Assembly: GCA_964389675.1 (NCBI GenBank) | Contig: CAYMEV010000012.1 | Location: forward strand, 39,329 to 103,328 | DNA: 64,000 nt | Direction of reading: 5' to 3' | Origin: an uncultured Candidatus Sumerlaeota bacterium | GTDB lineage: Bacteria; CAYMEV01 | Shown: piece after piece, positions 59,199 to 64,000 of the stretch | Position numbering within the stretch: position 1 is the first letter of the stretch | Layout of the letters: every line of letters begins with the position of its first letter | The notes under the pieces: model-generated | Told to the model about the DNA's origin: nothing | The model's input: only the letters and a program-made list of their open reading frames with translations | The model's database searches: none | Position numbers and translations under genes: made by a program

Positions 59199-61424
59199 TT
59201 GTCTAAACACAGCAGACCTTTCTTTGTGAAGTCATTATCCTCAAAGATTGCTCTTGTTATTTCAATTACCCTGGTATTGATGCTTATCATTATTAATTTT
59301 TTCTTTATGAGGCTTTTCAGCAGATTATTGATGGATTCACAGGAATCAAAAGCACGCGAGATTACCAGGATGTTTTCAAAGATAAATACCCCCCCATTGA
59401 TCAGAAACGATTATTACACTCTGGAGCAGAATGTGATCGAACTCCAGAAGAACAGGGATATTGTATCTGCCCAGGTATATGACAGCGATTTGTTTCTGCT
59501 TACTCTGTCCAGCAATGTAATTAAGGGTGAAAATAACGTGATGTTGAGGATATATGAAGAGGATATAAAGAATTATGAGGGAGGTATTATCGGGCATGTA
59601 ACAGTGGGTTTTGATATAAGCGATATGGTCCTTTTTATAAAACGATACCGGCTGGCGCTGTACATAGCAAGCTTTATTGCTGTATCCATTACCTTCATGA
59701 TACTGCTGTTCCTTATTAATATCATTGTCAGCAGGCCATTAAAGCTCCTTCTTGATTCTGTAAACCGAATATCCTACGGCGATCTGGACCATGAGGTGCC
59801 TGTTGAAAGAGCTGATGAGATCGGGGTTCTTGCTAAGGATTTTAATCTTATGACAAAGCGCCTGAAAAGCTCTGCAAGCAATCTTGCGTGTATTGTCGAT
59901 TGCATGCCCTCGGCAATAATTACAGTTGACAGGGATAAAAACATCCTTGAATGGAACAAATCTGCTTCCAGCCTTATTGGTAAAGGCAAGGAAGATGCCG
60001 TATCCAGGAATCTTTTTGATGTCTTTCCCCAAACAGAAAATTACAGGCATATAATTGAGCAGGTGATGGCAGAAAAGAAACCTTACAGGATTGCAAGGGA
60101 AAAGCTCTTTACTGAAAGCAGGTCAATTTATGAACTATTCTTTTTCCCTCTGAGAAATGAGCAGGCGGAAGGGGTTGTTATAAGGATTGATGACATTACG
60201 GAGAGAGAAAAAAGGAAGCTTGAGCTCATTCAGGCACAGAAGATGGAATCTATTGGAAACCTTGCAGGAGGGCTCGCTCATAACCTTAATAATATACTTG
60301 CTGGAATAGTCGGGACTACAACATTTCTGGAATATAAGCTTGAAAATGGCCAGCCTGTAAGCAGTGATGTCCTGAAAAACAAACTGAAGATCATAGATGA
60401 TTCAGGTCAGAGAGCTACTGAGCTGATCAAAGAGCTTATGGCAATATCAGGGAAAGATAAGAATATAGATTATCAGGTCCATGATCTGAATCTTCTGGCA
60501 GCCAATGTAATTAAGATGTGTCAAAACACCTTTGATAAGGCTGTTGAAATAATACCCCGCTATAATGAAGAAAAAGCCCTCTTTCTTGGAAACAGCAACC
60601 AGATAGAACAGGTCATCCTTAATATCTGCATTAATGCATATCATTCTATGACTGTGATGCGAAAACAGGGAGAGAATAAGGGAGGCAGGCTTACAGTATC
60701 TATATCAAGGTTCAGGGCTGATGACCATTTTGTTGCCGTCCACGAGAACGCATCAAAGAGAAACTACTGGATGACAAGCATCTCTGATACTGGGGTCGGA
60801 ATGAACAGGGACACCATATCCAGGATCTTTGACCCCTTTTTTACCACAAAGAAGGAATCCGGGGGGTCAGGGCTGGGCCTTTCGACAGTCTTCACTACAG
60901 TCAAACAGCACGGAGGGATTATTGATGTATATTCTGAGGTTGGCAGGGGCACTACATTCAGGATCTATATTCCTGTCAAGGAAGAAGAGGATGAAAAAAT
61001 ATGCAGGGAAAGCCAGGAGGATGATTTATCTTTGCAGAAGGGAAAAGGCTCTATCCTCATAATAGATGATGAGGATAGCATAAGGAATATTAGCAGGGAA
61101 ATGCTGAAGGAATGCGGGTATGATGTATACACTGCAGAGGATGGCATCAGCGGCCTTGATCTGTTCAGAGAAAAAAGCGGAGAAATAATCCTGGTGATAA
61201 TCGACATGATCATGCCGAAGAGATCCGGCCTGGAAGTCCTGAAGGATATTAAGGGGATAAACAGCTGTGTAAAGGTCATTATGTCATCAGGGTTCATGGG
61301 TGAAAATGACAGTGACCTGTCTTTGTATGGCCAGGCAGATGGTTTTTTGTCAAAGCCCTTTACTATTAAAGCCCTTTGTGAAGCAGTGCACAAAGTTATC
61401 AATAGATCTGATCAGGAGGTATAA
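59199..61424 (+). CDS. Hybrid sensor histidine kinase/response regulator (TM sensor - HAMP - PAS - HisKA - HATPase - REC)
   Basis: 741 aa; two TM helices flanking a periplasmic domain, H-box GGLAHNLNN, G-boxes DTGVGM and GSGLGLS, C-terminal REC (ILIIDDEDS ... DMIMPKRSG). Confidence 0.85.
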   Translation: MSKHSRPFFVKSLSSKIALVISITLVLMLIIINFFFMRLFSRLLMDSQESKAREITRMFSKINTPPLIRNDYYTLEQNVIELQKNRDIVSAQVYDSDLFLLTLSSNVIKGENNVMLRIYEEDIKNYEGGIIGHVTVGFDISDMVLFIKRYRLALYIASFIAVSITFMILLFLINIIVSRPLKLLLDSVNRISYGDLDHEVPVERADEIGVLAKDFNLMTKRLKSSASNLACIVDCMPSAIITVDRDKNILEWNKSASSLIGKGKEDAVSRNLFDVFPQTENYRHIIEQVMAEKKPYRIAREKLFTESRSIYELFFFPLRNEQAEGVVIRIDDITEREKRKLELIQAQKMESIGNLAGGLAHNLNNILAGIVGTTTFLEYKLENGQPVSSDVLKNKLKIIDDSGQRATELIKELMAISGKDKNIDYQVHDLNLLAANVIKMCQNTFDKAVEIIPRYNEEKALFLGNSNQIEQVILNICINAYHSMTVMRKQGENKGGRLTVSISRFRADDHFVAVHENASKRNYWMTSISDTGVGMNRDTISRIFDPFFTTKKESGGSGLGLSTVFTTVKQHGGIIDVYSEVGRGTTFRIYIPVKEEEDEKICRESQEDDLSLQKGKGSILIIDDEDSIRNISREMLKECGYDVYTAEDGISGLDLFREKSGEIILVIIDMIMPKRSGLEVLKDIKGINSCVKVIMSSGFMGENDSDLSLYGQADGFLSKPFTIKALCEAVHKVINRSDQEV

Positions 61425-62474
61425 ATGAGAAAGCTGATTCTATCAATTATGATTATAATAATATTTTCTGGGATAAGCTGCAAAAAGGAAATACAGGAGA
61501 CATCAGGCCGGCAGGAAGATCTTCCTGTCAAGGAAAAGCCCCGGTATAAATTCGGCTTTATTGCAGGAATGGGGGGTATGGGGGATAAATCATACAATGA
61601 TATCATTTACAGGGGATTAATAGTATCAAAAAAGAGATTTAACATAGATATCAGCTATAAGGCACCTGATAAACCGGAAGAATATGCCATACTGATGAAT
61701 GAACTGATTGATGACGGCTGTAATGTTATTATAGCCGGCGGAGGTTGGTATTCCATAGAGCCTGTTGATATTCTATCACAAAAGTACCCTGATGCCCTGT
61801 TCGTGCTTATAGATGATTATGCTCAAAAATACCGGGAAAATGTATGTTCGCTGACCTTCAGGCAGAATGAGGGCTCATTCCTGGCAGGAATGCTGGCATC
61901 GCATATGAGCAGGACAAAAAAGATTGCCCTCATCGCAGCTACCGATGCTGATGTGATCAATGATTTCATCCTGGGTTATAAGGCCGGGGCAGAATATGCC
62001 GATCAGAAGACTGAGGTTATTGTCCGTTATATCGATGCTCTTACAGATGTCCCGGACCCTTTTCAGCATCCGGAAGCAGCCTTCAGCATCTCCGAAAAGC
62101 TTATACTGGATAATAATGCGGATGTTCTTTTTCAGGTAGCCGGCGGTTCAGGCATAGGCGTGTTTAATGCTGCAAAACAGCACGGTAAATATGCTATTGG
62201 TGTAGACCTTGACCAGGATTATCTAGCCCAGGGGGTAATCCTTGCAAGTATGATGAAGAATATTGATATAGCAGTAGAGATGATTATAGAGAAGATACTG
62301 AAGGGAGAATTTAAGAACAGGCCATATATCATGGGCCTGAAGGAAAATGGCGTATCATTGTCTCCAATGACCTATACCAGGGATATTATTCCGGAAAATG
62401 TACTGGAATCGATAAGGACAGCGCGGGAGAAGATTGTAAGCGGAGAGCTGGAGATCCCATCCGCATTTAATTAA
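61425..62474 (+). CDS. BMP-family (Med/PnrA-like) substrate-binding lipoprotein
   Basis: 349 aa; lipoprotein-type signal with Cys (IFSGISCKK); periplasmic-binding-protein fold; start abuts the hybrid-kinase stop. Confidence 0.75.
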   Translation: MRKLILSIMIIIIFSGISCKKEIQETSGRQEDLPVKEKPRYKFGFIAGMGGMGDKSYNDIIYRGLIVSKKRFNIDISYKAPDKPEEYAILMNELIDDGCNVIIAGGGWYSIEPVDILSQKYPDALFVLIDDYAQKYRENVCSLTFRQNEGSFLAGMLASHMSRTKKIALIAATDADVINDFILGYKAGAEYADQKTEVIVRYIDALTDVPDPFQHPEAAFSISEKLILDNNADVLFQVAGGSGIGVFNAAKQHGKYAIGVDLDQDYLAQGVILASMMKNIDIAVEMIIEKILKGEFKNRPYIMGLKENGVSLSPMTYTRDIIPENVLESIRTAREKIVSGELEIPSAFN

Positions 62475-62535
62475 TTCTCTTAGAAACAGTGTTTTATTCA
62501 TATATTGACTAATCCTGAAAAGAGGTATTATAATT

Positions 62536-63561: not shown

Positions 63562-63574
63562 AGGATGCCTTAAC

Positions 63575-64000
63575 ATGTTCAAAAAGCATTTTGCCCGCTA
63601 CAGGCTTAAGGATATTTTCCTTGCCATAAGCACTCTAATTATCTGCGTGATGATAGCATATTTCTTTCTAAGCGTGTTTATCAGCCACAGGATGAGCAGT
63701 ATGCTTGAGAAAAACATTACCCTGTCTGAAATGATAAAGAAATTCAGCAGATTCCACATACAGTTCAGCAATATTGAATTAAGCACATACAGCTTCTTGC
63801 ACAGGCATACAATATCCGACCTGGGCCAGTTGAAGAGGGATCTTTCTGTGCTTAATGAAGAATTTGACGGGTTTGTCATGGAGATCAAGACCCATAAGAT
63901 GCCTTTTGATCCCGATTCAATGGAGGTAATAAAAAGACAGCTGAAGAGCATCAACAGCATCATAGGCAGGATTGAAGGCTACCCTGTTTCATCCAGCGAC
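63575..64000 (+). CDS. Membrane sensor protein, 3' partial (N-terminal 142 codons; output domain outside window)
   Basis: ATG 63575 with AAGGA RBS; hand-translated open frame to the window edge; one N-terminal TM helix then a coiled, helix-rich extracytoplasmic region. The listed minus ORF 63598..63963 is antisense to it. Confidence 0.4.
   Translation, partial: MFKKHFARYRLKDIFLAISTLIICVMIAYFFLSVFISHRMSSMLEKNITLSEMIKKFSRFHIQFSNIELSTYSFLHRHTISDLGQLKRDLSVLNEEFDGFVMEIKTHKMPFDPDSMEVIKRQLKSINSIIGRIEGYPVSSSD

Follow-up and report, generated by a model that had tools for sequence, protein, structure and literature searches.

Two putative sensor modules, each a binding protein with a hybrid histidine kinase, lie side by side in a Candidatus Sumerlaeota genome

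Gene content of the sensor block

We analyzed a 64,000-nt stretch of DNA (hereafter, the window) from an uncultured Candidatus Sumerlaeota bacterium (GenBank assembly GCA_964389675.1, contig CAYMEV010000012.1, positions 39,329 to 103,328 of the forward strand), focusing on a block at its 3′ end. At 59199-64000, four open reading frames (ORFs) on the + strand encode a hybrid histidine kinase (HK1), a lipoprotein of the Bmp family, an NMT1-family binding protein and the 5′ part of a second hybrid histidine kinase (HK2). An earlier note on the same DNA had described this block as one sensor array and suggested that the two binding proteins act as ligand-presenting co-sensors for the kinases rather than as transport components. 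The four co-directional sensor genes are indeed present, but they appear to be better described as two independent modules placed side by side than as a four-part machine.

The HK1 gene (59199-61424, + strand) starts with TTG behind a GGAGG ribosome-binding site at 59183-59187 and encodes a protein of 741 aa. This protein consists of a first transmembrane helix (∼aa 15-37), a periplasmic domain (∼aa 38-154; nt 59310-59660), a second transmembrane helix, and HAMP (aa 177-223), PAS (232-337), HisKA (353-417), HATPase_c (465-594) and receiver (REC; 619-730) domains. HAMP, PAS, HisKA, HATPase_c and Response_reg all exceeded their cutoffs in a Pfam scan, and the H-box GGLAHNLNN and the DD...D...K motif of the receiver were identified by reading the sequence. 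As the earlier note had claimed, the stop codon of HK1 (TAA, 61422-61424) abuts the start codon of the Bmp gene (ATG at 61425) with no gap, and a ribosome-binding site lies within the 3′ end of HK1.

The Bmp/PnrA-family lipoprotein (61425-62474, + strand; 349 aa) has a signal peptide ending in ...FSGISC and matches PF02608 with E = 2.7e-57 (194.5 bits against a cutoff of 24.1) over profile positions 10-299 of 301. It is followed, after an intergenic gap of 61 nt, by the gene for the NMT1/THI5-family protein (62536-63561, + strand; 341 aa), which begins with a signal or anchor helix and may have a lipobox (LLSC, residue 34). The match of this protein to PF09084 (E = 3.8e-44) agrees with its previous description as an NMT1/SsuA-like binding protein. 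Only 13 nt separate its stop codon from the start of HK2, and this tight gene spacing was counted in favor of functional coupling within the modules.

The membrane sensor that had been expected to run past the window edge starts with ATG at 63575 (+ strand) and is still open at 64000, so that the window holds 142 of its 770 codons. To read the remainder, we used a public contig of 14.3 kb (L001; Logan SRR8186049_4719) obtained from an exact-protein look-up, which is 100% identical to the window over 63000-64000 (the last 1001 bases) and reaches 5.3 kb further, with a coordinate offset of +54614 from L001 to the window. The full gene (L001 8961-11273, with a window-equivalent end at 65887) encodes a hybrid histidine kinase of 770 aa, composed of a transmembrane helix, a ∼140-aa periplasmic region, a second transmembrane helix, a divergent linker, and PAS, HisKA, HATPase_c and receiver domains above the Pfam cutoffs. 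By reading of the sequence, its H-box is GGLAHDFNN and its receiver has the DD...D...K motif. HK1 and HK2 are 34% identical from the second transmembrane helix to the C-terminus and unrelated in their periplasmic parts; HK2 is a paralogue of HK1 in its cytoplasmic part.

The earlier note had further held that no genes for permeases or ATPases of ATP-binding cassette (ABC) transporters belong to the block, and none was found within the 5.3 kb past 64000. A screen of the whole 64-kb window for Walker A and ABC signature motifs returned zero ABC-ATPase-like ORFs. Neither the canonical operon of Bmp transporters, which combines a double ABC ATPase with a pair of BPD_transp_2 permeases, nor a NitT/TauT-type permease and ATPase pair for the NMT1-family protein was found in the window or in the 5.3 kb downstream, and the 64-kb window has no second Bmp or NMT1 gene.

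We then considered the likely ligands of the two binding proteins. The solved structures closest to the Bmp protein are Lbp of C. thermocellum (7x0r, E = 6.6e-41) and TmpC/PnrA (2fqw, E = 5e-31), followed by BmpA, BmpD and pneumococcal PnrA, and by the much more distant Med (2hqb, E = 6e-20). The Lbp crystal contained guanosine-like density (PMC9601137), and the nucleoside pocket of the family comprises two stacking aromatic residues and a ribose-binding Asp, Asp and Lys, which in BmpA are F27, F176, D98, D225 and K242 (PMC13325309, PMC7093131). We mapped the pocket at the sequence level through an alignment to PnrA onto the binding residues named in these two studies. The nucleoside-core residues Y57, N58, D130, F181, F213, V260, D261 and K278 are kept in the window protein, where the stacking aromatics F36 and F186 of PnrA correspond to Y57 and F213, the ribose-binding D108 of PnrA to D130, and V224-D225 and K242 of BmpA to V260-D261 and K278. 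The base-recognition loops diverge, with G48-M49 in place of D27-S28 of PnrA and with an extra Trp108. Given the kept core and the divergent loops, our best guess for the ligand would be a nucleoside or a related ribose-containing compound.

The AlphaFold2 model of the NMT1-family protein had high confidence, with a predicted local distance difference test score (pLDDT) of 94.6. A Foldseek search with this model returned thiamin-bound 4nmy (E = 2.7e-26, target TM-score 0.83) and ThiY (3ix1, target TM-score 0.83), then THI5 enzymes, and then taurine and sulfonate binders, and the protein has a type II periplasmic-binding fold. Identity to the nearest structures was 18-24%, which is too low for ligand inference.

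Conservation of the two pairings in other genomes

The pairing of Bmp with a kinase recurs well beyond the window. A locus with a 63%-identical Bmp relative (L002) has the same upstream synteny and the same order of kinase then Bmp. On a 1.5-Mb contig with a wholly different neighborhood (L003), a 48%-identical Bmp gene is followed after 3 nt by a gene for a kinase of HAMP-PAS-HK-REC architecture, where HK denotes the histidine kinase core. In a member of Thermodesulfobacteriota (L004), Bmp precedes a HAMP-GAF-HK-REC kinase; in one of Cloacimonadota (L005), the order is Bmp, a HAMP-PAS-HK-REC kinase and a sigma-54 activator; and in a Spirochaete (L007), it is a nucleoside phosphorylase, a REC-HD-GYP protein, Bmp and a HAMP-HK kinase. 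The neighborhoods of these five loci were read directly, and no ABC genes were found beside the pair in any of them. The pair was also present in L012-L020, amid otherwise unrelated neighbors.

The window lineage has the order kinase-Bmp and the other lineages Bmp-kinase. This reversal, together with the unrelated neighborhoods, indicates that the pair was retained through rearrangement and is more than inherited synteny. Chance adjacency was rejected as an explanation, given that the pairs outlast full turnover of their neighbors and inversion of gene order. The genes that flank the pair elsewhere vary in output, including REC-GGDEF and REC-HD-GYP proteins and a sigma-54 activator, and on account of these different outputs the pair appears to be a portable input module.

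In the Spirochaete contig (L007/L008, 4427-9579), the genes 5′ of the Bmp-kinase pair encode a PNP_UDP_1 nucleoside phosphorylase and a REC-DUF3369-HD-GYP response regulator, a gene order that would fit nucleoside sensing coupled to cyclic-di-GMP turnover.

We also scanned species-representative genomes (one genome per species) with a subfamily alignment as the query and obtained 80 Bmp loci beyond those from the look-ups. The neighborhoods were classified by a script, in which the ABC-ATPase motif also admits the Bmp-type signatures LSGGN or LSVGE. The closest Bmp relatives in these genomes came from uncultured bacteria (45% and 44% identity), followed by Cloacimonadota and Spirochaetota. With scan and look-ups taken together, a kinase gene was found within 100 bp on the same strand in 16 of the 16 informative loci whose Bmp protein has a phmmer E ≤ 1e-78 to that of the window. 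The remaining 67 informative loci comprised 5 that were kinase-adjacent, 38 with canonical operons of an ATPase and two permeases, and 24 with neither detected; the difference in kinase adjacency between close and remaining loci was significant without correction for phylogeny (Fisher p = 4e-13).

In a neighbor-joining tree, the kinase-linked Bmp proteins, including that of the window, formed a clade opposite all of the ABC-linked proteins across the midpoint root, and a second, small kinase-linked clade came from Desulfobacterota. The two classes differ at specific residues (G48, G105-G106, N148 and S242) around the base-recognition loops, and D130, F181, F213, V260, D261 and K278 show little or no variation throughout the kinase-linked clade. 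The canonical relatives do have the layout of a double ABC ATPase with BPD_transp_2 permeases, which was confirmed by Pfam for L111.

Two loci with transport genes were noted separately. In L111 (338-5252), whose contig is cut upstream, NMT1-family and Bmp-family genes lie next to each other, and genes for a double ABC ATPase and a BPD_transp_2 permease come after them, a hint that the substrates of the two families may be related. In L073 (∼2576-5260, Thermodesulfobiota), an ORF of 895 aa that matches Bmp strongly (E = 2e-94 to 4e-94) and may represent tandem Bmp domains is followed by permeases.

The periplasmic domain of HK1, with a length of ∼115 aa, is conserved in every kinase found adjoining a Bmp relative. 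The N-terminal 185 residues of these kinases align well and contain a long helix bearing a conserved PLxRxDYYxLExN motif, after which come three strands with an invariant Asp and Gly, and then the second transmembrane helix and HAMP. A profile of this N-terminal region gave a weak match to the PDC domain of DcuS (3by8; E = 1e-3, with a deletion of ∼22 residues needed), and individual members touch sCache_3_2, ArlS_N and SMP_2. With the HK1 periplasmic domain as the single query sequence, an exhaustive search returned 26 matches at E ≤ 1e-3 among 1.84 billion representatives, which shows that at this sensitivity the domain is rare or fast-evolving. The AlphaFold2 model of the HK1 N-terminus, computed as a single sequence, was unusable, with a pLDDT of 54 overall and below 50 in the periplasmic part.

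Searching in the reverse direction, from the receptor to its neighbor, also led to Bmp. When the HK1 N-terminus was used as the query in a word-indexed search for homologues, one protein (P0241) was retrieved, and its gene immediately follows that of a Bmp protein sharing 46% identity with the window's. Furthermore, the profile of the HK1-type domain matched in full length three receptors that were not in the profile build, namely a kinase in L030 (2e-36), a HAMP-SpoIIE (PP2C) phosphatase in L031 (3e-20) and a methyl-accepting chemotaxis protein in L050 (1e-17), each of which is encoded immediately 3′ of a Bmp gene. One input domain joined to several outputs and always located beside a Bmp gene is the signature expected of a docking domain for Bmp. 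On the low-coverage contig L172 (903-2981; coverage 1.1), the HK1-like kinase is broken into four short ORFs, probably by sequencing frameshifts rather than as a true pseudogene.

For the NMT1-family protein, a 58%-identical relative was found in the same four-gene block of an HK1-like kinase, Bmp, NMT1 and an HK2-like kinase in L009. In L010, L011 and L092, relatives with 50-53% identity are followed within 9 nt by HK2-type kinases of 771-773 aa in unrelated surroundings and without a Bmp gene. Since the modules are thus found separately elsewhere, the block in the window can be understood as a juxtaposition of HK1 with Bmp and of the NMT1-family protein with HK2.

The entire NMT1 set consisted of 84 loci, 80 from the metagenome scan and 4 from look-ups including the window's own contig. 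A membrane receptor was adjacent in 23 of these, comprising 7 kinases, 3 HAMP-GAF, 1 HAMP-SpoIIE and 12 dCache-HAMP-SpoIIE receptors; NitT/TauT-type permease or ATPase genes lay beside 35 loci, which belonged to more distant relatives, and the remaining 26 were uninformative or on short contigs. Nine of the ten closest relatives (phmmer E ≤ 1e-59) were receptor-adjacent, and the tenth (L093) had a kinase and a receiver protein within 1.5 kb. Fusion proteins also occur, combining a relative of the NMT1-family protein with PAS domains (P0206) or with a kinase core (P0232). The profile of the HK2-type periplasmic region found nothing significant in the Protein Data Bank (PDB) or Pfam, where the best match was SunS at E = 0.14 and one member reached TarH at 0.016.

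In the 12 dCache-HAMP-SpoIIE loci (L105, L107, L110, L114, L125, L133, L135, L143, L153, L159, L163 and L168), all from metagenomes, a distant NMT1-family gene (∼30-33% identity) overlaps or abuts the gene for a dCache-HAMP-SpoIIE (PP2C) receptor of ∼650 aa. Six of these receptors were confirmed by Pfam and the rest were assigned by similarity. This combination looks like a recurrent module, of which no description was found in the literature.

Transcription, signaling output and surrounding genes

Two promoter-like sites were found on the + strand as pattern matches, in a consensus scan that as a whole was not enriched over shuffled sequences. One (59106..59134; L001 4492-4520) lies in the 111-nt gap 5′ of HK1 and reads TTGATT-17-TATTAT with an extended TG. 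The other (62505..62534), with TTGACT-18-TATAAT and 11 of 12 consensus positions, is the best of the region and lies in the gap between Bmp and NMT1. A separate transcription unit of NMT1 and HK2 may begin at this second site, and the two sites would fit two transcription units coinciding with the two modules. The second site stops 2 nt short of the annotated start codon of NMT1. Transcripts initiated there would have their 5′ ends close to the second in-frame ATG (62542) and would be leaderless. Alternatively, read-through transcripts may make use of the AAGAGG ribosome-binding site at 62520-62525.

Some distance upstream, a signaling cluster on the − strand (18412-25015) encodes an NtrC-type sigma-54 activator (18412-19752), a histidine kinase (19742-21487), CheD, CheC/CheX, CheA (22702-24642) and a CheY-like receiver (24650-25015). 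The sole histidine phosphotransfer (Hpt) domain in the window belongs to this CheA, and the NtrC-type regulator has its own kinase. No link between this cluster and the sensor block was found.

The CLC channel, TauE and MntP genes upstream of the block were considered and rejected as parts of the system, as they are syntenic in the closest relative only and replaced in L009. On the 3′ side of HK2 (L001 11352-13735; window-equivalent 65966-68349), a gene for a membrane-anchored TPR-like protein of 270 aa, with weak YfiO/TPR matches, is overlapped by that for a polytopic membrane protein of 533 aa with zero Pfam matches, followed by a − strand gene; the 270-aa and 533-aa genes are not kept in L009, L010 and L011.

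Two further regions of the window were noted. At 49442-55599 (+ strand), a 1013-aa protein with only a short GlnD_UR_UTase match is encoded 5′ of a three-subunit 2-oxoacid:ferredoxin oxidoreductase (POR_N/PFOR_II, TPP_enzyme_C and POR) and a 93-aa ORF. L009 shares this gene order, and L002, whose locus begins inside POR_N, retains the oxidoreductase and 93-aa parts. At 45974-48718 (− strand), a 914-aa ORF represents a fusion of Cmk and ribosomal protein S1, with a cytidylate kinase domain joined to S1 RNA-binding repeats (seven matched stretches), which might aid taxonomic placement of the organism.

Interpretation and comparison with known systems

Beyond the established gene content, domain architectures, lack of nearby transporter genes and conserved pairings, we read the block as two self-contained binding-protein-dependent sensor modules placed back to back, HK1 with Bmp and the NMT1-family protein with HK2, and assign this reading a probability of about 0.68. 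The binding proteins most likely relay a ligand signal to the kinases rather than feed an importer. The co-sensor role proposed in the earlier note gained support from the conserved pairings, the separate Bmp clade, the recurring receptor domain and the NMT1 fusions. It also withstood the refuting outcome that the note had named, ABC transporter genes immediately past 64000, since the 5.3 kb read there hold none.

In such modules, each binding protein would be secreted and anchored on the outside of the cytoplasmic membrane. Bmp would capture a small molecule, most likely a nucleoside or another ribose-containing compound, and the NMT1-like protein would capture another, possibly a pyrimidine- or thiamin-like heterocycle. 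With or without its ligand bound, the binding protein would then dock onto the periplasmic domain of the kinase with which it is paired (in HK1 a shortened PDC/Cache-like fold, in HK2 an uncharacterized domain), and docking would shift the transmembrane helices and alter autophosphorylation, as in LuxP-LuxQ, TorT-TorS and XylFII-LytS. Because both kinases are hybrid, combining a kinase with a receiver, the signal would pass onward via an Hpt protein and a response regulator encoded outside the block.

Several points weigh against this reading. All of the evidence is genomic, and adjacent genes for a binding protein and a kinase in Pseudomonas aeruginosa showed no interaction, a warning that proximity of such genes is no proof of one (PMC11113362). 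With ∼69 kb of the genome seen, a Bmp-type or NitT/TauT-type transporter could lie elsewhere. The block itself has no gene for an Hpt protein or a response regulator, and these partners may likewise sit elsewhere in the genome. The counts of loci carry no adjustment for shared ancestry. The ligand-core residues of Bmp are equally conserved in transport-linked Bmp proteins, so the pocket is uninformative on the choice between signaling and transport. Finally, the HK2-type periplasmic region keeps its length and topology, while its sequence is recognizably similar in the closest relative only; the case for a dedicated docking domain is therefore much weaker for NMT1-HK2 than for Bmp-HK1, and the former rests on adjacency and fusions rather than on a common docking domain.

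Some of these points would suit a dual role, in which Bmp and the NMT1-like protein supply ABC transporters encoded elsewhere and also report their occupancy to the kinases (compare maltose-binding protein with Tar, and ChvE with VirA). Many characterized signaling binding proteins do also serve transporters (PMC8050422), the ligand core of the window protein is indistinguishable from that of transport-linked relatives, and most of the genome lies outside the ∼69 kb that were visible. We nevertheless consider a dual role unlikely, as the kinase-linked Bmp proteins fall into a clade of their own, marked by class-specific substitutions, and Bmp-type transporter genes lie beside the pair in no locus of that clade. 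Small, unrelated-looking ABC ATPases are encoded upstream of the Bmp-kinase pair in L020 and L014. In addition, genes for kinase-stimulating binding proteins typically sit with signaling genes rather than with transporters (PMC8050422).

It is less probable still that the two proteins are orphan transport components, serving uptake via a distant transporter only, with kinases that regulate this uptake or are merely co-transcribed and sense otherwise through their own periplasmic or PAS domains. The cytoplasmic PAS domains of both kinases could indeed sense independently, and the non-interacting pair of P. aeruginosa offers a precedent. Such a role would leave unexplained why one periplasmic domain travels with Bmp genes on three output types, why the pair survives inversion of its order and turnover of its neighborhood, and why NMT1-family proteins are fused to signaling domains.

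A purely structural role, in which the proteins have lost solute binding and act as ligand-independent accessory lipoproteins that activate or inhibit the kinases (compare QseG-QseE and possibly Med-KinD), is very improbable given the near-invariant D130, F181, F213, V260, D261 and K278 of the kinase-linked clade, which would be unexpected if binding had been lost, although we know of no ligand for Med. Kinase-activating accessory lipoproteins do exist (PMC12691602).

Returning to the two-module reading, the surveys point tentatively to a wider class, which we put forward with less confidence than the modules themselves. This would be a hitherto undescribed and phylogenetically broad class of extracytoplasmic nucleoside sensors, spanning Cloacimonadota, Spirochaetota, Leptospirales and Desulfobacterota, in which a dedicated Bmp clade docks on a specific, shortened PDC-like domain that is joined to outputs of at least three kinds (histidine kinase, chemoreceptor and PP2C phosphatase), with a parallel and likewise unreported use of NMT1-family proteins with kinases, HAMP-GAF and dCache-HAMP-PP2C receptors. 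The window would perhaps be a natural juxtaposition of both systems, integrating two signals of nucleic-acid or vitamin breakdown.

If functional, the modules would add two binding-protein families to the signaling list and provide a recognizable receptor domain for annotating Bmp-dependent kinases, chemoreceptors and phosphatases in poorly studied anaerobes. They would also offer a testable route to the sensing of extracellular nucleosides, which mark cell lysis, host tissue and decaying biomass. For annotators they would serve as a warning, in that many entries named 'BMP family ABC transporter substrate-binding protein' or 'NitT/TauT substrate-binding protein' probably have no part in transport.

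The mechanism class itself is familiar. Binding-protein-dependent kinases are well established, including LuxP-LuxQ, TorT-TorS, XylFII-LytS, HptA-HptS, ChvE-VirA and AioX-AioS (PMC8050422), and signaling of this kind is thought to be widespread and has been documented for ∼13 binding-protein families (PMC11113362). The Bmp and NMT1 families and a dedicated Bmp receptor domain are absent from the reviews that were consulted. The main review of binding-protein signaling (PMC8050422) does not mention Bmp, NMT1 or KinD, and a literature search for Bmp or NMT1 with histidine kinases found no description of such modules, with the title of a study on Med-KinD, as cited in other papers, as the sole trace.

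PnrA/TmpC, BmpA, BmpD and Lbp are lipoproteins of the same family and fold as the window Bmp and share its aromatic sandwich and its ribose-binding Asp, Asp and Lys, but their genes lie in ABC operons, whereas that of the window lies against a kinase gene. ThiY, 4nmy and the THI5 enzymes have the same NMT1/THI5 fold and are the best sequence and structure matches to the NMT1-family protein, at the low identity given above; they belong to transport or biosynthesis contexts and not to kinases. Med of Bacillus subtilis is of the same Pfam family as the window Bmp, which its structure ('Transcriptional activator of comK gene') matches, but Med is far more distant from it than the nucleoside-binding proteins are. 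According to the title of that study, KinD reportedly requires the lipoprotein Med. The sensor domain of KinD is a large double-Cache domain, and KinD is not known to be of the hybrid type, whereas the short HK1 periplasmic domain, with its remote match to the single PDC domain of DcuS, is not of the double-Cache type.

The closest parallels by arrangement are LuxP-LuxQ, TorT-TorS and XylFII-LytS, in which the gene for a protein of periplasmic-binding fold likewise stands beside that of a membrane kinase without transporter genes of its own (PMC8050422), and of which TorS and LuxQ are hybrid kinases, as are HK1 and HK2. These systems differ in their binding proteins, which belong to the Peripla_BP_1 and Peripla_BP_4 families rather than to Bmp and NMT1, and in their sensor domains, which are tandem PAS/dCache-like in LuxQ and helical bundles in TorS and LytS, compared with the short PDC-like domain of HK1. 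Their interactions have been demonstrated by crystal structures, whereas the pairs of the window are predicted from genomic evidence. AioX-AioS, which responds to arsenite, is similar in that a type II periplasmic-fold binding protein is paired with a kinase having a single Cache-like sensor module (PMC8050422), albeit with a different binding-protein family and ligand. In sum, the block shares with sensors of the LuxPQ/TorTS type a binding-protein gene that adjoins the kinase gene, a conserved pairing, and no cognate transporter in the region seen.

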